From contig CAVTRC010000001.1 in the NCBI GenBank assembly GCA_963737065.1, positions 1,696,001-1,760,000 on the forward strand: a stretch of DNA of 64,000 nucleotides. The letters run 5' to 3'. Position numbers and translations under genes: made by a program. Every line of letters begins with the position of its first letter. Within the stretch, counting starts at the first letter, position 1. Below are positions 35,816 to 55,370 of the stretch, piece by piece. This DNA comes from Candidatus Eremiobacteria bacterium (GTDB taxonomy: Bacteria > Vulcanimicrobiota > Vulcanimicrobiia > Vulcanimicrobiales > Vulcanimicrobiaceae). A model generated the notes under the pieces. The model made no database searches. It was not told the DNA's origin and saw only the letters and a list, made by a program, of their open reading frames with translations.

Positions 35816-35876
35816 TTGCCTTTGGGTTTGTCAGGGGGTATAGTGGTGAGAAGTGGTGTTTGGTGGTGCCGTGGGG
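35816..35876 (+). promoter_or_regulatory. dcw promoter with MraZ-binding direct repeats
   Basis: TTGCCT-N17-TATAGT; GTGGTG at 35843, 35853 and 35863 (10-bp period). Confidence 0.75.
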
Positions 35877-35883
35877 AGGATCT

Positions 35884-36327
35884 TTGCAGACGGACCTGCC
35901 GCGCTTTACGGGATCGGTGGAGCACGCCCTAGACGAGAAGGGGCGGCTAATCGTCCCCGCGCGCTTTCGCGAACGGCTAGGAACCGGCTTCGTCATTTCG
36001 ATTGCCGAGCCGGAGCCGTGCCTCGTCCTCTACCCGGCGCCGGCGTGGGCGCAGGTGTGCGCGCGTTTAGAGGAAGCTCCGCGCAAGGACGAGCGATACC
36101 GCCGTCTCGTCCGGCACATCTTCGCCCACACCGAGGAAGTCGCGTGCGACGCGCAAGGCCGCCTGCTGATCCCCGCGGCACTGCGCTCGTACGCCGGCAT
36201 CACTCGTGACGTCGTCTCGGTTGGCTCCCTCACCCGGGTCGAGATCTGGGCGAAGGAACGCTACGCCGAGTATGCCGCCCCTGGAGGCGAGGTTGCGGAC
36301 CTTATGGCCGACCTCGGACTGTACTGA
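35884..36327 (+). CDS. mraZ: Transcriptional regulator MraZ
   Basis: LDEKGRLIVP and DAQGRLLIP AbrB-like repeats. Confidence 0.95.
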   Translation: MQTDLPRFTGSVEHALDEKGRLIVPARFRERLGTGFVISIAEPEPCLVLYPAPAWAQVCARLEEAPRKDERYRRLVRHIFAHTEEVACDAQGRLLIPAALRSYAGITRDVVSVGSLTRVEIWAKERYAEYAAPGGEVADLMADLGLY

Positions 36328-36342
36328 TGTGGTGCGTGCGTA

Positions 36343-37212
36343 GTGCACCAATCGGTTCTGCTCGCCCAATCACTGGAGTCTCTGGCGATCCGGCCGGATG
36401 GGACTTACGTCGATGCAACGTTCGGCGCGGGTGGCCACTCGCGCGCGATTTTGCAACGGTTGCGTGGTGGCCGTCTGATCGCGATCGACGCGGATCCCGA
36501 AGCCGCGGATCGGGCCCGCGCGATCGACGATCGCGCATTTATCTTCGTTCCTGCCAATTTCTCGGAGCTGCGTCGCGTGCTCGACGAGTGTGGAATCGAG
36601 TTAGTCGACGGAGTCCTCTTCGATTTGGGGGTATCGTCGATGCAGCTGGATGACGGGCAACGCGGGTTTTCGTTTCGCGAAAGCGCGCCGCTCGATATGC
36701 GCATGAACCCGTACGTGGGTCGAAACGCCTATGAGATTCTTGCAACGGTTTCCGAACGCGAGCTCGCGGATATTTTCTTCACCTATGGCGAAGAGCGGGC
36801 TGCGCGGCGCATCGCGCACGCGATCGTCGAACGCCGTAACGAAGGGCGGCTTCCGAAAACGACGCTCGAGCTTGCTGCAATCATCTCCGGGGTCGTGCAT
36901 CGCCCAGGCAAACGCGAACGCATTCACCCAGCGACGCGCGTGTTCCAGGCGCTGCGCATTGCGGTCAACGACGAGCTCAACGTGCTGCGCGAAGGGCTCA
37001 GTGCGGCGATCGATCGTTTGTGCACCGCGGGCCGCGTCGTTGCGATCAGCTTCCATTCGCTCGAAGATCGGATCGTCAAACAGACGTTTCGCGACGACGA
37101 GCGCCTCGAGGTTTTAACAAAGAAGCCGGTCGTCGCCGACGATGCGGAAACGGCTGAAAACCCACGAGCGCGCAGCGCAAAGCTGCGCGCCGCCCAACGG
37201 AAGGCAAGCTGA
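36343..37212 (+). CDS. rsmH: 16S rRNA m4C methyltransferase
   Basis: DATFGAGGHS, DLGVSSMQLD, FHSLEDR, NPRARSAKLR. Confidence 0.97.
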   Translation: MHQSVLLAQSLESLAIRPDGTYVDATFGAGGHSRAILQRLRGGRLIAIDADPEAADRARAIDDRAFIFVPANFSELRRVLDECGIELVDGVLFDLGVSSMQLDDGQRGFSFRESAPLDMRMNPYVGRNAYEILATVSERELADIFFTYGEERAARRIAHAIVERRNEGRLPKTTLELAAIISGVVHRPGKRERIHPATRVFQALRIAVNDELNVLREGLSAAIDRLCTAGRVVAISFHSLEDRIVKQTFRDDERLEVLTKKPVVADDAETAENPRARSAKLRAAQRKAS

Positions 37213-37218
37213 GCGACG

Positions 37219-37674
37219 ATGGCACTCGCGCAAACGGCATACGCGCCGCAACAGAAACCACGCATTCCTAATCCGCGTACCGCGCGCAACGCAACTGAAA
37301 AGCGCATCGTGAAAAGCCACCGGGCGCGCTACGCCTCGCTCGTTCGCGTTGCAACCGTGATTGCACTCGTGCTTACGGGCTTAATGGCATACGTTATGCT
37401 GACCTCGAACGTCACGAGCTTGACGTACGCCGTAGCAAAGGCGCATCACGAGCGCGACGCTTTGCAACGGCAAACGGCGCGTTTGGACGATCGCATCGCC
37501 ACCGCGCGTTCAGACGAACGTCTGGCCGTGATGGCGCGCAAGTTGCACATGGGCGATCCGCAGCTCTTTGCGGCCGTTCACTTGCCCGCGCAACAAATCT
37601 CGACGTCCCATCTTGCGGTGATCGACTCAATCGCAAGTTGGTTCACACCCACCTCACGGGTCGAGCCTCATTAA
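37219..37674 (+). CDS. ftsL: FtsL-like cell division protein
   Basis: Single TM plus coiled coil; position between rsmH and the PBP gene. Confidence 0.65.
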   Translation: MALAQTAYAPQQKPRIPNPRTARNATEKRIVKSHRARYASLVRVATVIALVLTGLMAYVMLTSNVTSLTYAVAKAHHERDALQRQTARLDDRIATARSDERLAVMARKLHMGDPQLFAAVHLPAQQISTSHLAVIDSIASWFTPTSRVEPH

Positions 37675-37679
37675 GGAAC

Positions 37680-39449
37680 GTGGCTGCTAAAAGCCTCGGT
37701 CATCAGCGACAGTTCGCGCGCGTCGGGCCGATGCGCGCGAAAGTGTTTTTTTATATCTGCGCGCTGATTGCGCTGTTTCTGGCGTGGCGTCTGTGCAAGG
37801 TACAGGTTTTGGACGGGCCGCAGCTTGCGCGTTTGGCTCTCGCGCAGCGCTCGGACACCGTGGAGGTCTTCGCGCGCCGCGGTACCATCACGGATCGCGA
37901 CGGCAACGTGCTCGTGCGGTCGCTCCCCTCTGAGAGCGTCTATGCCGTGCCGCACGATATCGTCGATACGGACTCGACGATCGTCAAGCTGCAGCGCCTC
38001 TTCGGCAAATTATCGCCCGCGACGGTCGATGCGTTACGCGACAAGAAGTTGTGGTTCGTCTGGATCGCGCGCAAAATTCCAAGTGACGTCGCGGATCGCG
38101 TGCGCGCGCTCGAACTCCCCGGCGTGCAGTTGCAGGAAGAAGACACCGGCAAACGCGTCGACATGGCGGGCAAGACGGCGTCGACGCTGCTCGGATTCGT
38201 CGGAACCGATGAAAACGGGCTCGACGGGCTGGAGTACTCGTTCGATTCAGTTCTCAAAGGCCAATCGGGCCGTGTCACGCTTGAAGCCGATGAATTCGGA
38301 CGGCCGATTCCCTTTGGGCACCAGCACGTCGTCAAAGCGGCGCAACCAGGCCTCAACGTCGAGTTGACGCTCGATCCGTACCTGCAATTCGTCGCAGAAG
38401 AAGCCCTGAGCGAACAGGTAACGAAATATCATGCGCTCGACGGTACGGCGATCGTGATGAATCCGTGGACCGGCGAAATCGTTGCCATGGCGAATGTCCC
38501 CAACTTCGATCCCAACCATTTTTGGAAATACAAACAGAACGATCTGCGCGACCGCGCGGTCACCGATGCCTACGAACCGGGCTCGACGTACAAACTCGTG
38601 ACGGCAGCTGCCGCACTCGAATCCGGAAAGGTAACACTCCAATCGCGCTTCCCGGCGCGCGACGCGATCGAAGTGGGCGGGCACGTCATTCACAACGCCG
38701 ACGACGACATGCCTGCGATCGGCGGGACGGAGACGCTCGAACAAATCATTCAATATTCGCACAATGTCGGTGCCGCGGAAGTCGGCATGGCGATCGGCGC
38801 GCGCACGTTCTATGACATGGAACGCAAGGCGGGATTCGGCGGTCCGACCGATGTCGAGCTTCCGGGAGAGAATCCGGGGATCGTTCCGGATCCGAAGGAT
38901 TGGAGCGATTCATCTCTTGCGACGATGTCCTTCGGCCAAGGCGTGTCGGTCACGCCGATTGCGATGGCGCGCTATTATTGTGCGATCGCAAACGGAGGAG
39001 TGCTGATGCGCCCGCGCGTCGTACGCGCGATCACCGATGCGCAAGGGAAAACGGTCTACACGTATCCGCCGGAAATCGAACATCGCGTCTTTTCGGCGAA
39101 GACGGCCGCCGAATTGCGCGGCTTCCTGCGTGCGGTCGTCTTACACGGTACGGGTGATCCAGCAGCGCAAATTCCCGGTTATTCGACCGCTGGGAAGACG
39201 GGCACGGCCGAGATGGTCGTCAACGGTTTTTACGAGCCCGGTTGGTATGCGGCGTCGTTCATCGGGTTCGTTCCCGCACAACGTCCGCGTTACGTCGTAT
39301 ACGTAAAAGTCGAACATCCGATCGGATCGTATTACGGCGGCGTGGTTGCTGCGCCGGCGTTCACGAAGATTGCGCGTGCGGCAATGCTGCATGACGGTGT
39401 GCTGCCGGCAGCGTCCCCGACGCCAAACGCCGGGCCGCACAAGCCGTGA
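37680..39449 (+). CDS. ftsI: Class B penicillin-binding protein
   Basis: EPGSTYK, SHN, KTGT motifs. Confidence 0.9.
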   Translation: MAAKSLGHQRQFARVGPMRAKVFFYICALIALFLAWRLCKVQVLDGPQLARLALAQRSDTVEVFARRGTITDRDGNVLVRSLPSESVYAVPHDIVDTDSTIVKLQRLFGKLSPATVDALRDKKLWFVWIARKIPSDVADRVRALELPGVQLQEEDTGKRVDMAGKTASTLLGFVGTDENGLDGLEYSFDSVLKGQSGRVTLEADEFGRPIPFGHQHVVKAAQPGLNVELTLDPYLQFVAEEALSEQVTKYHALDGTAIVMNPWTGEIVAMANVPNFDPNHFWKYKQNDLRDRAVTDAYEPGSTYKLVTAAAALESGKVTLQSRFPARDAIEVGGHVIHNADDDMPAIGGTETLEQIIQYSHNVGAAEVGMAIGARTFYDMERKAGFGGPTDVELPGENPGIVPDPKDWSDSSLATMSFGQGVSVTPIAMARYYCAIANGGVLMRPRVVRAITDAQGKTVYTYPPEIEHRVFSAKTAAELRGFLRAVVLHGTGDPAAQIPGYSTAGKTGTAEMVVNGFYEPGWYAASFIGFVPAQRPRYVVYVKVEHPIGSYYGGVVAAPAFTKIARAAMLHDGVLPAASPTPNAGPHKP

Positions 39450-40894
39450 GCGTTGCCTTGAAGATGCTGCTCGATCGTCTTCCGGCCAGCACGCAGGTCG
39501 TCGGCGATCCCGACGTCGCCGTGACGAATCTCGAAATCGATTCTCGCAACGTCCGGCCGGGATCGCTTTTTATCGCCGTACGCGGTGAGCACGTCGACGG
39601 GCATGTTTTTATCCCGGATGCGATTGCAAAGGGCGCCGTTGCAGTCGTTGCGCAGAATCGTGGTATCGCGCGATCCGCCGCGACGCTCGTGTACGTTCCC
39701 GACTCGCGCCGCGCGCTCTCCTCGATCGCGGCGGCATTTTACGGGAATCCGTCGCGCGCGCTCGACGTGATCGGTGTGACCGGGACGAACGGAAAGACGA
39801 CGACGACGCACATGGTAGCTTCCATGTTGAACGCCGCCGATCGGAGTTGCGGGATCATCGGGACGGTCGGTGCGGACTTCGGACGCATGCACTGGCAACT
39901 GTCGAACACGACGCCGCTTCCGCCCGAGTTGCACGAACTGCTCGCGCAGATGCGCGACCGCGGCGCGCGAGCGGTCGCGATGGAGGTGAGCTCGCACGCG
40001 CTCGCACTCGATCGCGTCGAGGACATTCACTTTCGGGTCGGCGTGCTGACGAACGTTACGCGCGACCACCTCGATTTTCATGGGACGCTGGAAGCGTATG
40101 CCGCGGCGAAACGCCGCCTTTTTAGTATGTGCGACGCTGCGGTGATCAACGTCGATGACGAACACGGCGCGCGCTGGGCCGATGAACTGCGGCGCAAGAT
40201 CCCGACGCTGACGTATTCCCTCAAGCGCGGTGCGGATCTCGTTGCAACCGATATTGAAGTGAGCTCGAAGGAGAGCCGCTTCAACGTCGGCGGCAAACCG
40301 ATCACTTTGTTGATTCCCGGGCGCTTCAATGTCGCAAATGCGCTCGCCGCGATCGGCGTTGCGTCTCACCTGGGTATACCCTATGAAACGGTCGAGCGCG
40401 CATTGTGGACGATTGCGAGCGTTCCCGGGCGCATGGAGTATGTCGGCGACAACGTCATCCACGCGATTGTCGATTACGCGCACACGCCGGACGCGCTGTA
40501 TCAAGCGTTGTGGGCGCTGCGCGAAGCGACGAGCGCGGTGTCGGTCGTGTTCGGATGCGGGGGCGATCGCGACAAAGGCAAGCGCGTCGAGATGGGACGG
40601 ATTGCTGCCGAACACGCGCGGCGCGTCTATGTGACGAGCGATAATCCACGCAGCGAAGATCCGATCGCAATCATCGCCGAAATAGAACGTGGTATTGGCG
40701 ATCGCCCGCACGTCATCGAACCCGATAGAAGGCGCGCGATCGAGCGCGCAATCGAGGAGGCCGCGCCGGGCGAAATCGTGTTGATCGCCGGTAAGGGTCA
40801 CGAGAAGTATCAGATCGTCGGCGATCAGACGCTGCCCTTCGATGATGCGGATGTTGCGCGAAGCGCGATTCGTTCGCGGAGATTGCGAAAATGA
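39446..40894 (+). CDS. murE: MurE ligase (meso-DAP type motif)
   Basis: GTNGKTT, MEVSSH, DYAHTPD, DNPR, AGKGHE. Confidence 0.96.
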   Translation: MSVALKMLLDRLPASTQVVGDPDVAVTNLEIDSRNVRPGSLFIAVRGEHVDGHVFIPDAIAKGAVAVVAQNRGIARSAATLVYVPDSRRALSSIAAAFYGNPSRALDVIGVTGTNGKTTTTHMVASMLNAADRSCGIIGTVGADFGRMHWQLSNTTPLPPELHELLAQMRDRGARAVAMEVSSHALALDRVEDIHFRVGVLTNVTRDHLDFHGTLEAYAAAKRRLFSMCDAAVINVDDEHGARWADELRRKIPTLTYSLKRGADLVATDIEVSSKESRFNVGGKPITLLIPGRFNVANALAAIGVASHLGIPYETVERALWTIASVPGRMEYVGDNVIHAIVDYAHTPDALYQALWALREATSAVSVVFGCGGDRDKGKRVEMGRIAAEHARRVYVTSDNPRSEDPIAIIAEIERGIGDRPHVIEPDRRRAIERAIEEAAPGEIVLIAGKGHEKYQIVGDQTLPFDDADVARSAIRSRRLRK

Positions 40895-42273
40895 CGCTGA
40901 CGTTCGGCGCTGCGGTTGACGCGACGCACGCAACGGTGTCCGGCACAGAGCACGCGCCGAACGAGGTTCGCGTCGTCACCGATACGCGGGCAATCGCACC
41001 CGGCGATACGTTTCTTGCGCTTCGCGGCGAACGGTTCGACGGACATCGCTACGTCGGTGAAGCGGTTGCGAACGGCGCGGTTGCGGTCATTATCGACGAC
41101 CCGAGCGTGCGTCCCACGTCGACAACGGCGCTCGTGGTTGCCGATACGTTGAAGGCGTACATGGCGCTCGCACGCGCCGCGCGCAATCGTTTCCGCGGCC
41201 GCGTCCTGGCGATCACCGGCAGCACCGGAAAGACGACGACGAAGTCGTTCGTCGCGCAGCTGCTCGCGCTGCACTATGGCACGCGCGTGCTCGCCGCGCC
41301 GGGAAACGAAAACAATCAGATCGGCGTCAGCAAGTTGCTCCTCAATGCCGATAACCATCGCCACGATGTACTCGTCGTCGAAATGGGCGCGCGTCACTTC
41401 GGAGAGATCGCCCAACTCGTCGAGATCGCGCGTCCGCACCTCGGCATTTTGACGAACGTCGGTGACGCGCATCTCGAGATCATGGGCTCGCGAGAGCGAC
41501 TCGAGGAGACGAAGTGGGCGCTGTTTTCCGCCGGCGCGCAAGCGGTGATCAATGCCCGTGATATCGCGTCGATCACGCGCGCGCCGCGACTCGCGCATCG
41601 GCCGCATTGGTTTTACGCCGGCAGCGACCGTTCCGAGATCCCTACGAGCGGGCGCGTTACGGCGATTTGCGATAACCGCTTGATCGATTTTGATATCGAA
41701 ACGGGGCACGATCGCGACGTTCGTGTCGATATCCGCGTGCCCGGCGCTCACAATCGTGAGAACCTTGCTGCGGCGGTTGCCGCAGCGGTTCACTTCGACG
41801 TCGATCTTGATGCGATAGCGGCTGCCATACCAAAACTCGCAATGCCGGAAGGCCGCTACGAACGGATGCAACTACCGTCCGGAATCACGCTCATTTTTGA
41901 TGCGTACAATGCGAACACCGCCGGGATGATCGCCGCGCTCGACGCATTCGCGCAAGAAGAAGCACGGCGCCGTATTGCTTTGCTTAGCAGCATGGCGGAG
42001 CTTGGTGAATCAGCAAGCGAGCTGCATCTGCGCGTCGGCGCGCACGCTGCCGAAACGCAAGTAGACGTCATGCTGGTAGGCGGCGAGTTCGCAGACGAAC
42101 TGTCGGCTGGAGCCGTGCGCGCGGGTCTTTCATCCGAGCGCATCGTTCCGTTTGCCTCGAACGCACAGGCTGCGCAGTGGGTTCGAACGAATGCGCGCGC
42201 GGGCGATGCGGTTTTACTCAAGGGCTCGCGTAAATATCGTCTTGAAGAGATCGTCGAGGACTTGCGCAAGTGA
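40891..42273 (+). CDS. murF: MurF ligase
   Basis: GSTGKTTTK, NNQIG, EMG, DAYNAN, LLKGSR. Confidence 0.95.
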   Translation: MTLTFGAAVDATHATVSGTEHAPNEVRVVTDTRAIAPGDTFLALRGERFDGHRYVGEAVANGAVAVIIDDPSVRPTSTTALVVADTLKAYMALARAARNRFRGRVLAITGSTGKTTTKSFVAQLLALHYGTRVLAAPGNENNQIGVSKLLLNADNHRHDVLVVEMGARHFGEIAQLVEIARPHLGILTNVGDAHLEIMGSRERLEETKWALFSAGAQAVINARDIASITRAPRLAHRPHWFYAGSDRSEIPTSGRVTAICDNRLIDFDIETGHDRDVRVDIRVPGAHNRENLAAAVAAAVHFDVDLDAIAAAIPKLAMPEGRYERMQLPSGITLIFDAYNANTAGMIAALDAFAQEEARRRIALLSSMAELGESASELHLRVGAHAAETQVDVMLVGGEFADELSAGAVRAGLSSERIVPFASNAQAAQWVRTNARAGDAVLLKGSRKYRLEEIVEDLRK

Positions 42274-42959
42274 CACTAGCCGTAACGCGTAGCGAAGTGC
42301 CGCCCGGCCTGGTTGCGATCCCCGTGCGAACGCGTCTCGTGCGTCCGAACGATGATTTCGTGTCGCTCGTTGCCGAGTGCGTGCGCGGCATTGCGCGTGA
42401 AGGCGACGTGCTTGCCGTTTCGGAGACCGCGGTCGCGATCGCGCAAGGTGAATTCGTCCCGGCCGAATACATTCGTCCCTCGATGCTTGCGCTTGCGCTC
42501 TCACGACGCGCCGGCGCGCTCGCAACGATCAATCAACCGGAGTCGTTGCAACTCGTCATCGACGAAGTTGGCCCGTGGAAGGTCGTGTATGCAGCGCTGA
42601 TGCACGTGCTCGCGCGCGTGCGCGGTAGACGCGGTGCGTTTTACGAAATCATGGGCGATGCAATCACGGCGCTCGACGGATACACCGGTACGCTGCCGCC
42701 GTACGAACGTGCGATCGTCTTTGCGCCGCGCGAGCCCGACGCGTTCAGCGAAGCGGTGTTCGAGCGGGCGGGCGTCGGATGCGCGGTCGTCGATGCAAAC
42801 GACTTGGAGAAAGCCAAGGTTCTCGGTGCGTCGCGCGGCGTGAACCGCCAGACCGTCGAACGGGCGCTGCTCGACAATCCACACGGCAACGGCGACGAGC
42901 AAACGCCGATCGTCGTGCTGAAGTGGCGGGCGGAGGGAGCGAATCCGCTGTGGATCTGA
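42270..42959 (+). CDS. CofE/F420-0 gamma-glutamyl-ligase-like protein of unknown function
   Basis: IPVRTRLV, DVLAVSETAVAIAQG, VVDANDL, DNPHGNGDEQTPIVV. Confidence 0.7.
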   Translation: MTLAVTRSEVPPGLVAIPVRTRLVRPNDDFVSLVAECVRGIAREGDVLAVSETAVAIAQGEFVPAEYIRPSMLALALSRRAGALATINQPESLQLVIDEVGPWKVVYAALMHVLARVRGRRGAFYEIMGDAITALDGYTGTLPPYERAIVFAPREPDAFSEAVFERAGVGCAVVDANDLEKAKVLGASRGVNRQTVERALLDNPHGNGDEQTPIVVLKWRAEGANPLWI

Positions 42960-43912
42960 CGTTCGTCGTGACGCGCGTGCCGGCGGGGTTTGCAATCGTC
43001 GCGCTCGGCGGCCTCGTCGTGTTGCCGCTGCTGCGCGGCTTGCAATTCAAGCAGCACGCGTACGAAGACGCACCGGAAACACATCAGAAGAAAAGCGGTA
43101 CGCCGACGATGGGCGGTGTGCTTTTCGCGCTTGCGATGCTGCCGATGCTCGCGAGTCACGAGGTGCCGTTCGAAGCGGCGCTTTTTACGCTCGTCGTGCT
43201 GTGCGCGCTCATCGGATTCATCGACGACTTTCTGGGCGTCACGCGCGGACGAAACCGCGGCCTCACGGCGCGTACGAAGTTTCTTGCCACGGCGCTCGTC
43301 GCAATCATCTTCTTACGCGCAATTACCGATTCGTACGGGTTCTTTCCGCGCGACGTCATTTTCCATGCCGGGGCGCTCGTGTTGAGCGTTCCCCATTGGC
43401 TGTGGATCGTGCTCGGCATTATCGCGATCACCGGAACGATTCACGCCGTCAACCTGACCGACGGTCTCGATGGGTTAGCGACGGGAACGATCCTGCCGCC
43501 GTTGATCGTGCTTGCGGCAATCGGCATCGCGCTCCCCATGGCGGCGCCTGCGGAAGCCGCGCTCCTCGGTATCGGCGCGTGCCTCGGATTTCTTTTATAC
43601 AATCGGCATCCCGCAAAAATGTTCATGGGCGATACGGGATCGCTCGCGCTCGGAGGGTTGCTCTCCGGGATCGCGATCGTCGAAGGCGAGATGCTGCTGT
43701 TGATTCTTATCGGCGGCGTTTTCGTTGCCGAAGCGCTTTCCGTAATTCTCCAGGTGTGGTACTTCAAGGCGACGGGCGGCAAACGGATCTTCCGCATGTC
43801 GCCGCTGCACCATCACTTCGAACTCGGCGGTTTACCGGAAACCGCCGTCACGTTTCGATTTTGGGCGGCCTCGCTCGTTCTCTCGCTGCTTGGATGGGTT
43901 CTCGTTCGATGA
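42950..43912 (+). CDS. mraY: Phospho-N-acetylmuramoyl-pentapeptide transferase
   Basis: KSGTPTMGG, IGFIDD, NLTDGLDGL, FMGDTG, PLHHHFE. Confidence 0.97.
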   Translation: MDLTFVVTRVPAGFAIVALGGLVVLPLLRGLQFKQHAYEDAPETHQKKSGTPTMGGVLFALAMLPMLASHEVPFEAALFTLVVLCALIGFIDDFLGVTRGRNRGLTARTKFLATALVAIIFLRAITDSYGFFPRDVIFHAGALVLSVPHWLWIVLGIIAITGTIHAVNLTDGLDGLATGTILPPLIVLAAIGIALPMAAPAEAALLGIGACLGFLLYNRHPAKMFMGDTGSLALGGLLSGIAIVEGEMLLLILIGGVFVAEALSVILQVWYFKATGGKRIFRMSPLHHHFELGGLPETAVTFRFWAASLVLSLLGWVLVR

Positions 43913-45303
43913 TGAGCTTTGATGCGCGTGAAACGGCATTGGTAATCGGGCTCGGAAAGAGTGGCCTTGCATGCGTCGACGTGCTACGCGCGCGCGGCGC
44001 AACGGTCTTTGGCACCGATGAAAAGCCATTAACGGAACTGCAACCCGCCATTGCAGCCATCGAATCGGCAGGTGCAACATTCGTTGCGCCCGCCGCGCTA
44101 CCGTCGGCCGTCACGCGCATCACGTCGGCCGTGCTTTCGCCCGGCGTGCCCTTGACATCGCCGCTCGTGCGCGCCGTTCAGCGCAAAAACGTTCCGGTCG
44201 TCGGTGAAATCGAGCTAGCGTACCGGTTGTGCAAAGCGCCGATCATCGCGGTTACGGGAACCAAAGGCAAATCCACGACCACCGCGCTCATCGGGCACCT
44301 GCTGCGCGAGTGCGGCAAAAGCGTGCGCGTGGGTGGAAATATCGGCAACCCGCTCATCAACGAAGTGCTCGACGTTACACCGGACGACTGGGTCGTGGCG
44401 GAAGTGTCGTCGTTCCAGCTCGAGACGATTCGCTCGTTCAAACCGCGCGTGGCGGTGCTGCTCAACATCGCGCCCGACCACCTCGATCGCTACTACTCGA
44501 TGGACGAGTACGCCGAAGCAAAGTTTCGCATCTTCGCAAATCAATCGTCTGACGATTTCTTCGTCGGCAATCTCGATGACGAACGCATCGCGACGCTCGA
44601 AACGGATGCGGGCGAGCCGCGCATGTCGTCGCGGCAGCTTTGGTTCACGCTGCACGACCGTCACGACCGCGCAACGATTTACGTGCACAACGAGTACGTG
44701 ACATACGCGCCGATCGCCGGCGATCCCCGCCCCGTCTCGGTGATCGCGACGAGCGATATTCCGCTCGCAGGTTCGCACAACGTCCAGAACGTGATGGCGG
44801 CGCTGCTTGCTGCATTCGCGGTGGGCTGCGACGCCGCGCAGTTACGTGAAGCGATCAAGACGTTTCGTCCGATGCCGCATCGGCTGCAAGCCGTCGCGGA
44901 AATCGACGGCGTGCTCTACGTCGACGATTCGAAATCGACGAACCCGGGTTCGGTCGTGGCGGCCTTGCGGGCGTACGAGCGGCCCGCGATTTTGATTGCG
45001 GGCGGCAGATCGAAGGGAACGGATTTTGTCGAACTCGGCGTCGCCGTTCGTCAGCGCGCAAAAACCCTCATCGTCATCGGCGAAGCGGCCGACGAGATCG
45101 CGCAGCATGCGCGCGGCGTTCCGACGCTCCACGCCGCGTCGATGGAAGAGGCCGTCGCAAAGGCGCGCGAAACGGCGGCATCGGGTGACGTCGTGTTGTT
45201 GTCGCCCGGCTGCGCGTCGTTCGACATGTTCCGCTCCGCCGAGCATCGCGGCGAAACGTTCGTCGCCGCGGTCGAAGCACTGAGAGAGACGGCCGGTGCT
45301 TAG
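43909..45303 (+). CDS. murD: MurD ligase
   Basis: GLGKSG, GTKGKSTT, EVSSFQL, DDSKSTN, LLSPGCASFD. Confidence 0.96.
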   Translation: MMSFDARETALVIGLGKSGLACVDVLRARGATVFGTDEKPLTELQPAIAAIESAGATFVAPAALPSAVTRITSAVLSPGVPLTSPLVRAVQRKNVPVVGEIELAYRLCKAPIIAVTGTKGKSTTTALIGHLLRECGKSVRVGGNIGNPLINEVLDVTPDDWVVAEVSSFQLETIRSFKPRVAVLLNIAPDHLDRYYSMDEYAEAKFRIFANQSSDDFFVGNLDDERIATLETDAGEPRMSSRQLWFTLHDRHDRATIYVHNEYVTYAPIAGDPRPVSVIATSDIPLAGSHNVQNVMAALLAAFAVGCDAAQLREAIKTFRPMPHRLQAVAEIDGVLYVDDSKSTNPGSVVAALRAYERPAILIAGGRSKGTDFVELGVAVRQRAKTLIVIGEAADEIAQHARGVPTLHAASMEEAVAKARETAASGDVVLLSPGCASFDMFRSAEHRGETFVAAVEALRETAGA

Positions 45304-46480
45304 ACAGGCGTCCGGCGCAGCGCGTCTCGCCGAACGGCCGCGATACGACACGCGCGAACACGCGAGTTTGCGTTCGTATGTTGCGATGCCGCCCGATACG
45401 TTACTCTTTGCCGCGGTTGCGGCCCTCGTGGGCATTGGGCTCGTGATGATATTCTCGGCGTCGAGTGCGACAGCGTATGCGGAGCACCATGATGTCGCGT
45501 TTTATTTGAAACGGCAGTTGCTGTGGCTCGTTGCGGGATTAGTCTGCGCGTATTTTGCCTACCGGATCGACTACCATCGGTTGAAACGGGCTGCGCCGTA
45601 CCTTTTGCTCGGCGCAATCTTGGCGCTCGTTGCCGTGTTGGTGCCGCACGTCGGTATGGTCGTCAACGGCGCGCGCCGGTGGATCGGTATATCCGCGGTC
45701 AGCTTTCAGCCGTCGGAGTTCGCGAAGCTCGCAATGATCGTCTATCTCTCGGCAATGCTTGCGAACCGCGGTGACCGGATCACGTCGCTCGCGAAGGGTC
45801 TCTTTCCGCTGTGCATTCCGGTGTTCTTGATGGCGGTACTCGTGCTGAAAGAGCCGGACATGGGGACGGCGAGTTTGCTGATCCTCATTTCGTTCGCAAT
45901 GTTTTTTGCCGCCGGCGCGCGCGTGCCGCATATGGCGGCGATTGCGCTCGCAACCGTACCGCCCGCGCTGATAACGATCGTCACGAACCAGTATCAGCGT
46001 GCGCGCGTTTTCGCGTTCATCAATCCCTGGCGCGATCCGCAAAACACCGGCTTCCACATCGTGCAGTCGCTGCTCGCGCTCGGAAGCGGCGGCTTGATCG
46101 GCGTCGGCTTGGGCGCATCGCGCGCGAAATTTTTCTACCTCCCCGAACAGTACACGGACTTCATCTTCTCGGTCATCGGCGAGGAACTCGGATTGATGGG
46201 CACGATCGCGGTCGTCGTCCTCTTTCTCGTCTTCGCGTATCGCGCGGTGAAGATTGCGATTGCGGCGCCCGACCGCATGGGGTTCTTTCTTGCGATCGGT
46301 TCGATGGCGTGCATCACGATCCAGGCGTTTATCAATATCGGCGTCGTCACGTCATCGTGGCCGGTGACCGGCGTACCGTTACCGTTCATCTCGTTCGGCG
46401 GAAGCTCGTTGATCGTCAATCTCGTTGCCGTCGCATTCATCATGAACGTCGGGCGCCATCGCCGGCTCTCGCGCCCGTGA
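45296..46480 (+). CDS. ftsW: SEDS protein FtsW
   Basis: GARRWI, QPSEFAK, TDFIF, PFISFGGSS. Confidence 0.95.
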   Translation: MLRQASGAARLAERPRYDTREHASLRSYVAMPPDTLLFAAVAALVGIGLVMIFSASSATAYAEHHDVAFYLKRQLLWLVAGLVCAYFAYRIDYHRLKRAAPYLLLGAILALVAVLVPHVGMVVNGARRWIGISAVSFQPSEFAKLAMIVYLSAMLANRGDRITSLAKGLFPLCIPVFLMAVLVLKEPDMGTASLLILISFAMFFAAGARVPHMAAIALATVPPALITIVTNQYQRARVFAFINPWRDPQNTGFHIVQSLLALGSGGLIGVGLGASRAKFFYLPEQYTDFIFSVIGEELGLMGTIAVVVLFLVFAYRAVKIAIAAPDRMGFFLAIGSMACITIQAFINIGVVTSSWPVTGVPLPFISFGGSSLIVNLVAVAFIMNVGRHRRLSRP

Positions 46481-47574
46481 ACGTCGTCTTCACCGGAGGT
46501 GGAACCGGCGGACACCTCTACCCGGCGATTGCCGTGGCCGACGCGCTTCGCGCGCGCGATGCAAACATTACGTTCATCGGTGCGAAGGACCGGTTGGAAG
46601 CAAAAATCGTGCCGCAAGCCGGATACCGGCTGATCACGGTCGCAAGCGGTCCGCTCGTGCGAAGTTCCGCAGAGCGTATGGTGCGTTCCGGATTCTCGAA
46701 CCTGATCGGCATCTTTCAGTCCGCGCGCGCGCTCGCGCGCATCGAGCCGGATATTATCATCGCGACCGGCGGGTACGTCTGCTTTCCGGTCGTTCTCGCG
46801 GCCGCGCTCTTGCGCAGGCATCCCATTGCGTTGCTCGAGCCGAACGCGCATCCCGGATTGACGAATCGCGTCTTGTCGCCGATCGTCGACGAAGTGTGGG
46901 GCTCGTTCTCGCAAGCCGATAAGCATTTCAACGGGAAGTACGTGCACACGGGAATTCCGGTTCGCGCCGGGTTGCGTGTATTGCCGCTGCGTGAAGACGC
47001 CGTTGCGCGTCTGGGCTTGTCGGCATCGCGCCGCACGATTCTCGCGCTGGGCGGAAGTCAAGGCGCGCGATCGATCAACGATGCTTTGTCATCGCTCGTC
47101 AAAGCGAACGGATTGCCCGAGGGCTGGCAACTCATTCACGTGACCGGCGAAAAAGAATACGACCGGGTTCGCCGCGCCGTCAACGGGACGCACGCGGCGA
47201 CGGCCGTGCGTCCCTATCTGGACGATATGGCCGACGCATATGCGGCTGCCGATCTTGTGCTTGCGCGAGCGGGTGCATCGACGCTCGGCGAGTTGACGGC
47301 AACCGGAAAACCCGCGGTGCTCGTGCCGTATCCGTACGCAGCAGACGATCATCAGCACGCAAACGCCGAAATGGTCGTGCGCGCGGGAGCCGCCGTTGTC
47401 GTCGACGATCACGAACTGCTCGCCGGAAAATTGCGCGCGATCCTTGCCGACGTTACGCAGCCCAGCCGCCTCGAAGGCCTGACGGCCGCAGCCGAGCGCG
47501 CGCGTGCTCTTGACCCGGTCGCGTCGATTCTCGCCCGGGTCGACGCATTGACGCCGAGAAAGACAAGCCCATGA
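46477..47574 (+). CDS. murG: MurG glycosyltransferase
   Basis: GGGTGGHLYP, GGSQGA, RAGAST, HQHANA. Confidence 0.96.
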   Translation: MNVVFTGGGTGGHLYPAIAVADALRARDANITFIGAKDRLEAKIVPQAGYRLITVASGPLVRSSAERMVRSGFSNLIGIFQSARALARIEPDIIIATGGYVCFPVVLAAALLRRHPIALLEPNAHPGLTNRVLSPIVDEVWGSFSQADKHFNGKYVHTGIPVRAGLRVLPLREDAVARLGLSASRRTILALGGSQGARSINDALSSLVKANGLPEGWQLIHVTGEKEYDRVRRAVNGTHAATAVRPYLDDMADAYAAADLVLARAGASTLGELTATGKPAVLVPYPYAADDHQHANAEMVVRAGAAVVVDDHELLAGKLRAILADVTQPSRLEGLTAAAERARALDPVASILARVDALTPRKTSP

Positions 47575-48965
47575 GTACGCGCGAGCGCGAGGGGGAAAAG
47601 GTGCACTTCGTGGGGGTGGGCGGCATCGGAATGAGCGCGATCGCGCGAATTTTGCTTGCGCGCGGCGCGCGGGTCACTGGTTCGGACGTAAAGGAAACCC
47701 CGCTGACCGCGCGCCTTCGCGATGAAGGCGTCAATGTCACGATCGGTCACGATGCTGCAAACCTCGACGGGGCCGAAACGGTCATCGTCAGCTCGGCGAT
47801 CGACCGGCGCAATCCCGAATACGTCGGCGCACAACGTGCCGGCGTGCCGATTCTTCACCGCGGCGAGATGCTGGCGCGATTACTGCGCGAACGGTGCGGC
47901 ATCGCGGTCTGCGGGACGCACGGGAAGACGACGACGACGGCGATGATGCACGCGGCGCTGCGTGCCGGTGGTGTTGACGCGAGTTTGGTCCTTGGCGGCA
48001 TCGACGGTGTGCTCGGAACCAACGCGCACGATGGACGTTCGGAGTGGTTCGTCACCGAAGCGGACGAATCGGACGGTTCGTTCGTATTGCTCGATCCTGC
48101 GATCGCGATCGTGACAAACATCGAAAACGATCATTTGCAAAGCGACGATGAACTGCCCCAGCTCGTGCGCGCGTTTGACGAATTTCTCGGGAAATTGCCG
48201 CGCGACGGTACAGCCGTGATCGGCGTCGACGATCCGCTCGCCGCATCGCTCGAGGAACGCCCACGCGCGGCGAAGACGATTACGTTCGGGTTCGCCCCCC
48301 GCGCGAGCGTTCGCGCGATGAACGTTCGTTGCGAAGGACTCGGCATGAGCTTCGATGTTGTCGCCGGCGGCGTGTGTCTGGGCACGATCGAGCTCACCGT
48401 GCCGGGCGCCATTAACGTCCAGAATGCGCTCGCCGCAATCGCGGCGGCGCGCGAACTCGAGATTCCCTTCGCGCAGATCGCGGAGGGTATGCGCGCGTTT
48501 CGCGGCGTTCGCCGCCGCTTTGAGATTCTGACGCGCAGCGATCGGATGATCGTCGTCGACGATTACGCGCATCATCCAACCGCCGTACGCGCGACGATCG
48601 CCGCTGCGCGCCAGTATCATGGCGGTCCCGTCCTCGTCGCGTTTCAGCCGCACCGCTACTCGCGAACGGCGTACCTTGCGCGCGATTTCGCCGATGCGCT
48701 GCGCGGCGCCGACCACGTGTATCTCGCGCCCGTCTATGCCGCGTCGGAAGCGCCGATTCCGGGCGTCAGCGAACGTTCCATCGGCGAACCGCTTACATCG
48801 GGTGGCGTGCGCGTCAGCTATGCCTCGCATGTCGACGAGCTTGCGGAGCGGATCTTCGATGAAGCGCCGCGCGGCGCGCTCGTGTTGATGCTCGGCGCCG
48901 GGAACATCACGGACGTCGCATTTCGCTTAGCGGCTCGCGTCGAGCAGCATCCCGTACGGGCGTGA
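47571..48965 (+). CDS. murC: MurC ligase
   Basis: GVGGIGMS, GTHGKTTT, EADESD, DDYAHHP, FQPHRYSR. Confidence 0.97.
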   Translation: MSTREREGEKVHFVGVGGIGMSAIARILLARGARVTGSDVKETPLTARLRDEGVNVTIGHDAANLDGAETVIVSSAIDRRNPEYVGAQRAGVPILHRGEMLARLLRERCGIAVCGTHGKTTTTAMMHAALRAGGVDASLVLGGIDGVLGTNAHDGRSEWFVTEADESDGSFVLLDPAIAIVTNIENDHLQSDDELPQLVRAFDEFLGKLPRDGTAVIGVDDPLAASLEERPRAAKTITFGFAPRASVRAMNVRCEGLGMSFDVVAGGVCLGTIELTVPGAINVQNALAAIAAARELEIPFAQIAEGMRAFRGVRRRFEILTRSDRMIVVDDYAHHPTAVRATIAAARQYHGGPVLVAFQPHRYSRTAYLARDFADALRGADHVYLAPVYAASEAPIPGVSERSIGEPLTSGGVRVSYASHVDELAERIFDEAPRGALVLMLGAGNITDVAFRLAARVEQHPVRA

Positions 48966-49918
48966 GTTTGACGACCGGTAAAGCCGTTGCATCGTTGCTG
49001 CGCGACGACGATCGCGCCGTGCTTCGCGATATCTTCGGTGAACGCGTGCGTTTCGACGAGCCGCTCGGAACGTTCACGTCGTGGAGAATCGGCGGACCGG
49101 CCGATGCCTTTGCGGTCGTGGAGCGCGAGGAAGAACTGGCGGCCGCGATGCGCCTCTGTTTCAAACGGCGCCTTCCGTGGTTCGTCATCGGTAGCGGCAG
49201 CAACGTGCTCGTCGGCGATGGCGGCATGCGCGGAATCGTCGTGCGTTTGGGTGGTGCGTTCGCGGAAATCAACGCGCGCGTCGATGCAGATGAGATCATC
49301 GTGGACGCCGGCGCGTCCGCCGGCATGGCGGCCGTTACCGCGAAAGCGGCGACCCTCGGCGGGGTCGGGATCGGTTCCCTCGCCGGAATCCCGGGGACGG
49401 TTGGCGGATCGTTGCGCATGAATGCGGGCACCGATCGCGAGATGGGCGATTTCGTGCGTAACGTGTGGGTCCAATCACCGGTAAAGCCTGATCCGCATGC
49501 GATCAGCGTGCAGTATTTCTATCGTCACACGACGCTCGCGCGCGATGCGGTCGTTTCGCGGGTGACGCTGGCGTTCGAACGCGGCGATCCGAAGACCGTG
49601 CGGGAGGAGATGCAGGCGCGCTTGGTGCGCCGCAAGAGCTCGCAGCCGATCGCGCTGCCGAATGCCGGTTCGTGTTTTCGCAATCCTGAAGGCGACAAGG
49701 CGGCGCGGTTGATCGAAGCCGCCGGCGCTAAGGGATGGCGGGTCGGCGGCGCGGAAGTCTCGCCCCTGCACGCGAACTTCATCAACAATCTCGGCGGTGC
49801 AACCGCGCGCGACGTCGCTACGCTCTTGGCACGCGTACGACGCGCGGTGCACGAGCAATTCGGCGTCGAACTACAGCTGGAAGTGCATCTAGTCGGCGTG
49901 TTTATCGATGAGACGTAG
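48962..49918 (+). CDS. murB: MurB reductase
   Basis: IGGPAD, GSGSN, GIPGTVGG, AGSCFRNP, HANF. Confidence 0.95.
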   Translation: MSLTTGKAVASLLRDDDRAVLRDIFGERVRFDEPLGTFTSWRIGGPADAFAVVEREEELAAAMRLCFKRRLPWFVIGSGSNVLVGDGGMRGIVVRLGGAFAEINARVDADEIIVDAGASAGMAAVTAKAATLGGVGIGSLAGIPGTVGGSLRMNAGTDREMGDFVRNVWVQSPVKPDPHAISVQYFYRHTTLARDAVVSRVTLAFERGDPKTVREEMQARLVRRKSSQPIALPNAGSCFRNPEGDKAARLIEAAGAKGWRVGGAEVSPLHANFINNLGGATARDVATLLARVRRAVHEQFGVELQLEVHLVGVFIDET

Positions 49919-49934
49919 TTAGGGTCACCCTAAA

Positions 49935-50876
49935 ATGACAAAAAGAAACGCGAAAGTCGCCGTCGTCATGGGCGGAAGCAGCACGGAACGCGAGGTTTCG
50001 ATCCAAACGGGGTCGGGCGTGATGCGTGCATTGCAGTCGCTCGGCTACGAAGCGCAGTCTTTCGACTATGATCGCCGGTTCTTAGATGCCGTTCGCGATA
50101 TCGCGCCCGACGTCGTGTTCATAGCGTTGCACGGGCCGGGCGGCGAAGACGGTCATATCCAAGCGCTGCTCGATTTTCTCGGCATCCCGTATCAGGGCAG
50201 CGGCGTCGAAGCATCCGCGCTCGCGATGGACAAGCACATGACGAAGAAGCTGCTTGCCGCCGAAGGGTTACCGACCGCTGCATGGGATCTCTTCGATCTC
50301 TCCGGCGGAACGCTGCCGCTGCTTCCGGGTTCGCTCGATCTCCCGCTCGTCATCAAGCCGCGCTTCGAAGGCAGTGCGCTCGGCGTCAATATCGTGAAGA
50401 CACACGAGCAATGGACGAGCGCAATGCTGACCGCGGCAAAGACGTTCTCGCAAATCATGGCCGAGGAGTATATCGAAGGCCGCGAGTTTACGGTCGGCAT
50501 TCTGGGTGAAGAAGCGCTTCCGGTGATTGAAATCGTGCCGAACGGCGACGAATTCTATACCTACGATGCAAAATACGCGCAAGGCGGAAGCACGCACATC
50601 ATTCCCGCAAAGATCGACGAAGATCTCGCAGCCCGTCTGCAAATGCTTGCGCTCTCGACGCATCGACTGCTCGGCTTACGCGACTGTTCGCGAACCGATT
50701 TCATCGTGAGCAAAGAAGGCCGTCCGCAGATTCTCGAAGTGAACACGCTGCCCGGCCTGACCGCGACGAGTCTTTTACCCGACGCATGCGCGTCGATCGG
50801 CATTTCGTACGAAGCATTGATCGAACGCCTCATCGGCTACGCGCTCGCACGCGCCGAAGTCCGCGACGTCGCCTAA
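49935..50876 (+). CDS. ddl: D-alanine--D-alanine ligase
   Basis: GGSSTEREVS, LHGPGGEDG, YDAKY, LEVNTLPG. Confidence 0.96.
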   Translation: MTKRNAKVAVVMGGSSTEREVSIQTGSGVMRALQSLGYEAQSFDYDRRFLDAVRDIAPDVVFIALHGPGGEDGHIQALLDFLGIPYQGSGVEASALAMDKHMTKKLLAAEGLPTAAWDLFDLSGGTLPLLPGSLDLPLVIKPRFEGSALGVNIVKTHEQWTSAMLTAAKTFSQIMAEEYIEGREFTVGILGEEALPVIEIVPNGDEFYTYDAKYAQGGSTHIIPAKIDEDLAARLQMLALSTHRLLGLRDCSRTDFIVSKEGRPQILEVNTLPGLTATSLLPDACASIGISYEALIERLIGYALARAEVRDVA

Positions 50877-50936: not shown

Positions 50937-52325
50937 ATGCATCTTCCGGATCCATTCGATTGCCGCTGTCCGCACGGCGGGTTTTCCGACCGCCTGTTTT
51001 ACCAAGCGAAGATCGCACTAAGTCGGCGTTCGTTCATCCTCGGCGCCGCTGCCGCAGGAATTGCGTCAATGCTGCCGTGGCGCGCGCGTGCGTCGGACGC
51101 CGTAACGGTGCTCAAAGCGGCGCGGCTTTTCGACGGCAAGAAGCTGCAGGCGCCTGGCGTGCTCGTTATTCAAGGCGGACGCATCGTATCGATGAACGCG
51201 GGCGATGCGAGCGTCGACGCGCACGTCGTCGATCTCGGCGATGCAACGCTCATGCCGGGGCTCGTCGATTGTCACACGCACGTAGCGGGCTGGGTCGTGC
51301 CGTCGCATTACCTCGCGGCGCCCGGCCGCACGAGCGACAATCCTGAAGAACTTGCGATCTACGGGCTGAAGAACGCGCATGCAATGCTCGCTAACGGATT
51401 CACGACGTTACGCGACGTGGGCGGCGGCTGGGGAATCGATCTTGCGGTTCGCGACGCCATCAATGAAGGTACGGTGATCGGTCCTTCGATCTTTGCGGCG
51501 GGCCCGGCGCTGTCGATTACCGGCGGACACGGCGATTCCAACGATCTACCGGATTTCGTGCACGAAGACGCACCGATCGAATCGGGGGTCTCGTACGGGC
51601 CGTACGGGTTCCGCGAAAAAGTTCGCGAACACGTGAAGCGCCACGTTGATCTCGTGAAGATTCTTGCGACGGGCGGCGTACTGAGTTACGGCGACGTGTG
51701 GGACGTTCCGCAATTGAATCTCGATGAGATTCAAGCGGTCGTGGACGAATCGACCAAATTCGGGCGCAAAGTCGCGGCGCATTGTCACGGTGATAAAGGC
51801 ATTTCAATCGCCGTCGAGGGCGGCGTGCACTCTGTCGAGCATTGCACCGGCGTCAGCGACGCGACGCTGAAGAAAATGGAGCAGCGAAAAACGAGTCTCG
51901 TGCCGACGATCTGGGCGCTCGATTCAATTCTCGTGCCCGGCAATCCGAATCACATTCCGCCCGGTTCCGTGGAGAAAGCAGAATACGCCGCAAAGGTGCG
52001 CAACGAAGGCATGCAACGCGCGCTCGCATCGAGCGTCACGATCGCGTACGGGACCGACGCGGGCGTCTTCGCGCACAAAGAGAACAACAAAGACTTCGCG
52101 TTATTGCAACGCATGGGCATGCATCCGATCGACGTGCTGCGCTCGGCGACGTCAACGGCTGCGGAGTTGATCGGCCTGAACGATCGCGGCGTACTCGCGA
52201 GCGGCAAACGCGCGGACGTCGTCGCGTTCAACGGCGACCCATCGAGGAACATCGCCATTCTGGAGTCGCAGCCTCGATTCGTTATGGTGGGCGGCAAGCG
52301 CATCGACCCTAACCTGTTGGTCTAG
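50937..52325 (+). CDS. Tat-exported amidohydrolase (prolidase-like)
   Basis: SRRSFILG Tat motif, PGLVDCHTH, KILATGG, AHCHG, EH, GTDAG. Confidence 0.85.
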   Translation: MHLPDPFDCRCPHGGFSDRLFYQAKIALSRRSFILGAAAAGIASMLPWRARASDAVTVLKAARLFDGKKLQAPGVLVIQGGRIVSMNAGDASVDAHVVDLGDATLMPGLVDCHTHVAGWVVPSHYLAAPGRTSDNPEELAIYGLKNAHAMLANGFTTLRDVGGGWGIDLAVRDAINEGTVIGPSIFAAGPALSITGGHGDSNDLPDFVHEDAPIESGVSYGPYGFREKVREHVKRHVDLVKILATGGVLSYGDVWDVPQLNLDEIQAVVDESTKFGRKVAAHCHGDKGISIAVEGGVHSVEHCTGVSDATLKKMEQRKTSLVPTIWALDSILVPGNPNHIPPGSVEKAEYAAKVRNEGMQRALASSVTIAYGTDAGVFAHKENNKDFALLQRMGMHPIDVLRSATSTAAELIGLNDRGVLASGKRADVVAFNGDPSRNIAILESQPRFVMVGGKRIDPNLLV

Positions 52326-55360: not shown

Positions 55361-55370
55361 CCTTAGAACG

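Follow-up and report, generated by a model that had tools for sequence, protein, structure and literature searches.

To our knowledge, the cytoplasmic steps of peptidoglycan synthesis, from MurA to MurF and then MraY, are regarded as complete and near-universal. What, then, could be the role of a further gene that sits directly between murF and mraY? This question is raised by a 64,000-nucleotide stretch of a Candidatus Eremiobacteria bacterium genome (the window), whose division and cell wall (dcw) gene cluster carries at this position a gene for a protein resembling CofE, the coenzyme F420-0:L-glutamate ligase. We call this gene and its product X. A sequence-only reading of the window had delimited the gene and proposed that its product modifies peptidoglycan. 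We report here that X is predicted to have the CofE fold, that its placement between murF and mraY is conserved in related loci, that its relatives are fused to enzymes of peptidoglycan metabolism, and that elements by which CofE contacts F420 have been lost. Our favoured explanation, to which we give about an even chance, is that X may be a cytoplasmic amide ligase, dependent on a nucleoside triphosphate and on metal, which acts ahead of MraY to modify a free carboxylate group in a soluble peptidoglycan precursor. The features at the centre of the question are the following (UDP-MurNAc, uridine diphosphate-N-acetylmuramic acid).

40891..42273, plus strand: murF (UDP-MurNAc-tripeptide:D-Ala-D-Ala ligase), 460 aa, with Mur_ligase, Mur_ligase_M and Mur_ligase_C domains.

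42270..42273, plus strand: GTGA junction, 4 nt shared by the X start and the murF stop (TGA, 42271-42273), a translational-coupling arrangement.

42270..42959, plus strand: the CofE-like gene X, 229 aa, GTG start, TGA stop at 42957-42959, from the open reading frame (ORF) list and translation.

42950..42959, plus strand: probable 10-nt overlap of the X end with the mraY GTG start, from reading of the sequence.

42950..43912, plus strand: mraY (phospho-MurNAc-pentapeptide translocase), 320 aa, with Glycos_transf_4 and MraY_sig1 domains.

The extent of X given in the sequence-only reading, including the overlap of its GTG with the murF stop and of its end with the likely mraY start, was thus recovered as stated. 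The murF product scored 360.5 bits against the TIGR01143 murF model (cut-off, 288.6), and a GAGG lies at 42256-42259, 10 nt 5' of the X start codon. We placed the mraY start at the GTG at 42950 because there is a GGAGG-like stretch at 42933-42940, because an ATG stands at the aligned position in L001, the closest relative of the X locus, and because the 320-aa product read from 42950 matches TIGR00445 (256.5 bits; cut-off, 192.05). Alternative in-frame GTGs at 42968 and 42977 would leave gaps of 8 and 17 nt, respectively; whichever start is used, X and mraY share 10 nt or lie no more than 17 nt from each other. X resembles its neighbours in GC content at third codon positions (GC3 = 0.73) and in its codon-position GC pattern, the GC content of the window being 60.8%, and this GC3 value together with the many relatives described below indicates that X is a real gene.

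The CofE-like character of X was borne out by both profile and structure comparisons. X scored 48.6 bits against Pfam PF01996 (F420_ligase; cut-off, 25; E = 9.5e-13), with the match confined to X residues 19-111, corresponding to columns 2-89 of the 218 in the profile. PF01996 was the only family that Pfam found in X, and no Mur_ligase domain was detected, whereas murC, murD, murE and murF of the window show all three. When X was compared with the PDB by sequence alone, Archaeoglobus fulgidus CofE gave a weak match in its N-terminal part only (E = 0.016). A profile of 29 diverse X relatives lifted this match to an E value of ~3e-7 and gained a second short aligned stretch, in which VVDAN of X pairs with IITDTN of CofE, such that X residue D175 corresponds to the aspartate of TDTN. 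An AlphaFold2 model of X built on the 29-relative alignment had a mean predicted local distance difference test (pLDDT) value of 90.9 and a predicted template modelling (pTM) score of 0.87. The five best matches of this model in the PDB by Foldseek were all A. fulgidus CofE chains (E values of 2e-10 to 2.7e-9, probability 1.0, template modelling [TM] scores of 0.53-0.59, ~19% identity), led by 2phn_A (E = 2e-10; TM scores of 0.59/0.55 over 261 columns), while the next PDB match had an E value of 0.4. Since the model is confident and CofE chains are its only significant PDB matches, X is predicted to have the CofE fold; the modelled fold and the Pfam score together confirm its placement in the CofE/F420_ligase superfamily (PF01996, COG1478). 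Scanning the sequence revealed neither a signal peptide nor a hydrophobic segment in X. According to the consulted parts of the structural report (PMC10861534) and of the 2021 F420 review, a defining feature of CofE is an intertwined homodimer whose active site lies at the interface. A complex prediction with two copies of X, GTP and Mn had a score of 0.00 and a mark of 0.42, which speaks neither for nor against such a dimer of X.

We then considered whether the position of X is particular to this genome. X has 1705 relatives at E<=1e-3. The best 120 of these (74-100% identity) are from Candidatus Eremiobacteraeota, Baltobacteraceae, Aquilonibacter and Vulcanimicrobiaceae, and the product names on these close relatives, where there are any, read "coenzyme F420-0:L-glutamate ligase" or "hypothetical protein". 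A scan of species-representative genomes returned 597 pattern matches, of which 562 were confirmed as relatives, and the best 80 loci (60-91% identity), all Eremiobacterota-like, were analysed by locating gene neighbours through tblastn with the dcw proteins of the window. The linkage seen in the window recurred throughout this survey: mraY was directly downstream of X in 80/80 loci, and murF was directly upstream in 78/80, which are all 78 loci with upstream DNA, the other two (L050 and L069) beginning at or inside X. The gene order from ftsI to ddl was identical in the related loci as far as the DNA extends. A 4-nt overlap joined the murF stop and the X start in 46 of 78 loci, and one of the same length joined the X stop and the mraY start in 50 of 78. 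In these loci the median identity to the window proteins was 68.7% for X (n=79), 62.9% for MurD, 61.8% for MraY, 56.6% for MurF and 56.6% for MurE, suggesting that X is at least as constrained as its essential neighbours, with the proviso that loci selected through X favour X. These observations support the conclusion that X is a dcw-cluster gene whose placement between murF and mraY is conserved across the phylum Eremiobacterota.

Six of the loci (L014, L048, L061, L065, L075 and L076) bear titles from elsewhere, namely Verrucomicrobiia, Limnocylindria, Binatia, Rhodospirillales, Alphaproteobacteria and Janthinobacterium. They keep the Eremiobacterota gene order with 64-72% X identity, although L075 and L076 match only residues 14-220/224, and their titles are probably binning or labelling errors. 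A tblastn search of 72,556 plasmids with X gave no match.

To place X in a wider family, we compared it by phmmer with 1.84 billion cluster representatives at the 50% identity level, which yielded 715 matches at E<=1e-3, 88 of them at E<=1e-30. Domain architectures were taken from Pfam scans of 61 of the best 150 relatives and from two further searches. The X domain occurs both alone and joined to other domains. Two MurF-X proteins were found, P0126 (736 aa) and P0318 (747 aa; represented by 4 sequences on 2 contigs), in each of which X lies C-terminal to MurF; identity to the proteins of the window is 54-55% over the X part and 39-41% over the MurF part. In 40 proteins of at least 500 aa, those that are named coming from metagenome-assembled genomes of Firmicutes/Bacillota, X is joined to Amidase_3, a MurNAc-L-Ala amidase. 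These proteins (P0148, P0272-P0307 and others; 508-565 aa) consist of an N-terminal domain that has no Pfam match, Amidase_3 and the CofE-like domain. The N-terminus is not hydrophobic in any of the 40, suggesting that some Bacillota have a MurNAc-L-Ala amidase in the cytoplasm. Five further proteins carry X behind an AsnB-like glutamine amidotransferase/asparagine synthase and six carry it behind TPR repeats, and one combines TPR, X, a transmembrane segment and a polysaccharide deacetylase; GNAT, adenylate kinase, M20 peptidase and HD domains accompany X in one protein each. The terrabacterial phyla named among X-family members are Bacillota, Cyanobacteriota, Chloroflexota, Armatimonadetes and Eremiobacterota. 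Because X has no hydrophobic segment and its family's fusion partners use ATP, glutamine or acetyl-CoA, the X domain is expected to be cytoplasmic.

A paralogous form of ~400 aa (P0134, P0138 and relatives) is modelled with an N-terminal transmembrane helix, an Ig-like beta-sandwich and a CofE-like domain. A transmembrane-like segment falls within the first 60 residues of 117 of the 168 proteins of this form, which bears source names from Eremiobacterota, Armatimonadetes and a cyanobacterium of the Pseudanabaenaceae, and some Eremiobacterota may therefore carry two members of the X family. Even at E<=1, no Pfam family matched the N-terminal regions of the relatives that carry an amidase or a membrane anchor. 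A quick maximum-likelihood tree of 128 domains, rooted at the midpoint, grouped X with the close relatives that stand alone and with both MurF fusions in a clade of 9 rows, separated from the other 119 with a Shimodaira-Hasegawa-like approximate likelihood ratio test (SH-aLRT) value of 100; one member of this dcw clade, P0208, has a long branch and appears to be frameshifted.

We set aside a second type of apparent fusion, in which X and MraY share a single ORF. One such ORF is in L002 (9899-11662, 587 aa), and P0189, P0239 and P0269 combine an X fragment with MraY domains. The end of MraY before its first transmembrane helix faces the periplasm, an odd topology for a cytoplasmic enzyme. We did not count these ORFs as fusion evidence because X precedes the first transmembrane helix of MraY in them and because a one-base error at the 4-nt overlap would suffice to produce them.

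The family comparison also bears on whether X is an enzyme at all. One could suppose that X is a non-catalytic adaptor, a scaffold or regulator that passes UDP-MurNAc-pentapeptide from MurF to MraY or controls the flux between them. The MurF fusions would suit such a role, as would the idea that Mur enzymes form complexes, which is expressed in the part of a survey of Mur chimeras that we consulted (PMC10214165). Moreover, the lysine and the glutamate of the CofE motif SKAEGR are replaced in X, and position 61, which is usually arginine in the family, is glutamate in X. We examined residue conservation in 408 near-full domains of all architectures, drawn from a non-random sample of 500 proteins. 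D46, G101, G122, F124, G129, D136, P144, P153, D175, N177, D178, N203, P204, G206, T212 and P213 were 98-100% conserved, and T21, E52, Q59 and A74 were 94-98% conserved; at position 210, E was found in 79% and Q in 18% of the family. The pattern held in the amidase-fused subset as well. A set of polar and acidic residues (D46, E52, Q59, D136, D175, N177, D178, N203 and T212) is thus kept at 94-100% even alongside unrelated partners, which is the pattern of an active site and not of a protein-protein interface. We consequently regard an adaptor role as unlikely.

The amidase fusions raise a different possibility, namely that X is catalytic in recycling and not in modification. Acting as an analogue of the ligase Mpl, X would activate the D-lactyl carboxylate of UDP-MurNAc and couple it with a recycled stem peptide, either L-Ala-D-Glu-meso-diaminopimelate (mDAP) or the same peptide with a further D-Ala, and so feed MurF or MraY; the reaction would mirror the first one of CofE, which acts on the lactyl carboxylate of F420-0. 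That the first substrate carboxylate of CofE belongs to a lactyl group is stated in the consulted portions of two reports (PMC1971073; PMC10861534). The placement of X beside murF and mraY suits this proposal, and the 40 amidase-X fusions, lacking a hydrophobic N-terminus as they do, suit a cytoplasmic pair of enzymes that cuts and then reuses. However, a salvage enzyme would not be expected to exceed MurE and MurF in conservation or to be fixed in a core operon in 80/80 loci, and the amidase fusions belong to another clade than X. No ampG, ampD, nagZ or ldcA types were present among the 61 window ORFs scanned, and the AsnB-like and deacetylase fusions would be left unexplained. On balance we think it quite improbable that X is a recycling ligase of this kind or that its substrate is such a recycled peptide.

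Is X instead a genuine coenzyme F420-0:L-glutamate ligase that happens to sit in the dcw operon? Its relatives are publicly so named, it scores above the PF01996 gathering threshold, and its predicted fold is that of CofE. In contrast, X scored 30 bits against the TIGR01916 equivalog (cut-off, 180.65) and 28.2 bits against the NF009809 equivalog (cut-off, 274), missing both cut-offs six-fold or more, and its PF01996 match was N-terminal only. TIGR01916 was matched by 23 of 29 diverse X-family members, with a best E value of only 1.6e-9, and the columns of PF01996 beyond 150 of 218 were unmatched in all 61 X-family members scanned. The comparison with F420_ligase/CofE models and predicted structures that had been suggested alongside the sequence-only reading therefore gave the fold and a PF01996 score above its cut-off, together with equivalog scores far below theirs.

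The residues that hold F420 point the same way. In the CofE-F420-1 and CofE-F420-2 structures, as described in the part of the report consulted (PMC10861534), the isoalloxazine ring is held by G153-C155, F92 and a domain-swapped hairpin, together with R234 from the partner chain. An alignment of CofE with the X relative P0206 pairs "TDTNGRCfrRGVVGFAIG" with "vdtndla..advlgass", from which it follows that D178-L179-E180 of X stands in the place of G153-R154-C155 of CofE, with a deletion of two residues after it. D178, which thereby takes the place of an isoalloxazine-pocket residue, is 98% conserved in the X family. The model of X contains no strand pair between residues 187 and 214 as a counterpart of the CofE hairpin, and X has 229 aa compared to 249-254 aa in solved CofE chains. 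Pfam scans of 61 ORF translations from the window (9+46+6) found no F420 biosynthesis family (cofC/cofD/cofG/cofH, fbiA/C/D) besides X, in agreement with the claim of the sequence-only reading that the window holds no F420 genes. In its consulted sections, including the passage on the bacterial phyla that carry F420 genes, the 2021 F420 review does not mention Eremiobacterota, WPS-2 or Armatimonadetes, and it brings in cyanobacteria solely for FO-dependent photolyases. Given also the fusions of its relatives to wall enzymes, we judge it very unlikely, in agreement with the sequence-only reading, that X is a coenzyme F420 enzyme, and the chance presence of a genuine F420-0 ligase in the dcw operon is accordingly a highly improbable account of the locus.

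A folate glutamate ligase of the FolC2 type (a dihydrofolate synthase/folylpolyglutamate synthase of the CofE family) is scarcely tenable: although 9 of 29 diverse relatives give weak matches to TIGR04132 (putative folate metabolism gamma-glutamate ligase; lowest E value, 1.7e-7), and although the chlamydial CofE homologue CT611 complements an Escherichia coli folC mutant according to the consulted part of PMC1971073, no such match was obtained for X itself at E<=0.01, its neighbours in the loci are murF and mraY with no folate genes beside it, and the fusion partners are wall and not folate enzymes. Judged by these sequence comparisons, X falls outside the F420 ligase equivalog group, the FolC2 group and the Mur ligases.

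We return to the favoured explanation, that X is an amide ligase of precursor synthesis. A protein of the CofE fold would have been recruited from the tailing of a cofactor into the synthesis of peptidoglycan precursors, and X would be made together with MurF and MraY by way of the overlapping reading frames. By analogy with CofE, the conserved acidic residues D136, D175, D178 and E210 of X may serve to bind a nucleoside triphosphate together with two divalent cations; two of the residues, D136 and E210, are presumably the equivalents of the CofE metal ligands D109 and E208. X would then transfer phosphate to a free carboxylate on a soluble precursor, and attack of an amine on the acyl phosphate would give a new amide bond. 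The precursor would most likely be UDP-MurNAc-pentapeptide, the product of MurF, with the alpha-carboxylate of D-Glu and the epsilon-carboxylate of meso-DAP as possible targets, and MraY would then move the modified precursor onto the lipid carrier. We infer the catalysis, the nucleotide use, the target carboxylate and the joined amine by comparison with CofE, which, using GTP and two Mn2+, turns the terminal carboxylate of its substrate into an acyl phosphate that the glutamate amine then attacks (consulted part of PMC10861534). None of our results points specifically to cadaverine, putrescine or any other amine as the group that X adds. The sequence-only reading had offered the stem peptide of either UDP-MurNAc-pentapeptide or lipid I/II as the substrate. 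A role in peptidoglycan synthesis gained from the independent domain fusions, which tie the X family to peptidoglycan enzymes. The absence of hydrophobic segments from X and its fusion to MurF in a sister lineage make a soluble nucleotide precursor a likelier substrate than lipid I/II.

Several points weigh against this explanation. Only one residue of the CofE metal site, D150, has been paired with X by alignment, as D175. The CofE motif SKAEGR aligns with AIAQGE of X, in which the lysine and the glutamate have become I57 and Q59, family-wide; if these two residues serve GTP binding in CofE, the nucleotide use of X may differ or may have been lost. The amidase, AsnB-like and deacetylase fusions form other clades, at ~35-46% identity to X, so a transfer of function from them to X is something we infer across a considerable distance, and the amidase partner fits stem-peptide recycling equally well as modification. 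Finally, the 80 loci are the best X matches of 562, a choice that favours high X identity, and a locus set of this kind gives no fraction of Eremiobacterota dcw clusters that have no X.

Known systems show how the proposed reaction would relate to established chemistry. X has its fold in common with CofE and with FbiB's N-terminal domain (PF01996, COG1478; 2PHN, 2G9I, 7ULD). Its N-terminal 90 residues can be aligned with CofE in sequence, the aspartate of TDTN is kept, and the chemistry (an acyl phosphate formed with a nucleoside triphosphate and metal, then an amide) is probably common to both, by analogy. X differs in its ~19% identity, in the last third of the Pfam profile, which was unmatched in 61 members, and in its context, since that of CofE is not a dcw operon. 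FolC2 (CT611 of Chlamydia; TIGR04132) is likewise a CofE-family protein with a substrate other than F420, whereas X differs from it in its wall-gene context. That enzyme was predicted by gene clustering and confirmed by complementation, and it replaces a FolC of the Mur-ligase type (PMC1971073, in the part consulted). The Mur ligases MurC to MurF and Mpl resemble the reaction proposed for X, in that a carboxylate of a UDP-MurNAc derivative, a nucleoside triphosphate and an amine are brought together, although their fold is unrelated to that of X. The window already holds murC, murD, murE and murF besides X. A strong resemblance between the mechanisms of CofE and MurD is noted by the authors of the CofE structures (PMC10861534, in the part consulted).

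Enzymes that modify the carboxylates of the stem peptide are also known. MurT/GatD amidates D-isoglutamate and AsnB1/LtsA amidates mDAP, in both cases acting on stem-peptide carboxylates of precursors at the cytoplasmic face. The modification is of the kind proposed for X, but the folds differ, being Mur-ligase-like plus glutaminase in the former and of the asparagine synthase B type in the latter. We know of no case in which either lies between murF and mraY. It is with AsnB-like amidotransferase domains that the five X-family members mentioned above are fused. In the Negativicutes, the activity that adds cadaverine or putrescine to D-Glu would also link an amine to a stem-peptide carboxylate through an amide bond. 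This addition acts on a lipid intermediate, in contrast to X, which looks soluble. The polyamine-modified D-Glu is the ligand of the OmpM tether in Negativicutes, and the enzyme is unnamed in the part of that report consulted (PMC10628300). We saw no indication that Negativicutes have a member of the X family or that polyamines are present in Eremiobacterota walls. In the papers searched, we found no description of a CofE-like gene in a dcw cluster or fused to MurF, and neither "F420" nor "CofE" occurs in the consulted part of the survey of Mur chimeras (PMC10214165). The first Eremiobacterota isolate has a thin peptidoglycan layer and an outer membrane; diaminopimelic acid, murein and cadaverine are not mentioned in the consulted text of its description (PMC9758169).

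The wider surroundings of X in the window are those of a dcw cluster.

35860..50876, plus strand: dcw cluster, comprising mraZ, rsmH, a small ORF (at the ftsL position), ftsI, murE, murF, X, mraY, murD, ftsW, murG, murC, murB and ddl.

MurE of this cluster has a DNPR motif, which accompanies walls of the meso-DAP type. The cluster closes with ddl (49935-50876), after which comes an amidohydrolase gene (50937-52325). Pfam scans of the 61 window ORFs gave no match to the FtsQ, FtsA or FtsZ families, and the division genes that often close a dcw cluster are therefore located elsewhere. The longest ORFs of murD (43201-45303, 700 aa) and murG (45811-47574, 587 aa) reach far into the preceding genes; their Pfam domains start only at residues 246 and 225, respectively, indicating that the true starts are much later, and such over-extensions are the long open frames typical of GC-rich DNA. 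Other wall-related genes nearby encode an S13 D-Ala-D-Ala carboxypeptidase (55263-56921, plus strand) and an alanine racemase (57891-59024, minus strand). Farther away, an 869-aa ORF at 3109-5718 combines a nucleotidyl transferase, hexapeptide repeats and three phosphoglucomutase/phosphomannomutase domains, and it clusters with genes for a 4-alpha-glucanotransferase, a glycogen debranching enzyme and a glycosyltransferase. Genes for an LptF/LptG permease (25015-26169) and an SLT transglycosylase lie directly next to an 857-aa ORF at 22437-25010 (minus strand) for which there was no Pfam match. Searching the window with Rfam gave no match.

These results have consequences for annotation and for the biology of the phylum. 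The label "coenzyme F420-0:L-glutamate ligase" on X relatives can inflate predictions of F420 in genomes of Eremiobacterota, Armatimonadota, Bacillota and cyanobacteria. If the favoured explanation is true, X would represent a new pathway role for a fold and chemistry already known and, after FolC2, the second case of a CofE-fold enzyme in a role otherwise filled by Mur-ligase-type enzymes. A bolder version of the idea, which we put forward tentatively as possible but less than probable, is that all Eremiobacterota make a non-canonical precursor, with a fifth cytoplasmic ligase, of the CofE and not the Mur fold, adding ammonia, an amino acid or a diamine through an amide link to UDP-MurNAc-pentapeptide after MurF and before MraY, and that the fused relatives in Bacillota, Cyanobacteriota, Chloroflexota and Armatimonadota represent an unrecognised family that tailors wall precursors. 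On this version, the family could include the type of enzyme, so far without a name, that aminates the D-Glu of the stem peptide. Vulcanimicrobium alpinus (PMC9758169) represents the phylum in culture, which makes the question directly testable. If an additional enzyme gene is indeed strictly kept between murF and mraY throughout a phylum of soil bacteria, and is more conserved than the essential genes beside it, this would mean an added step in the pathway or precursor chemistry that is so far unknown.

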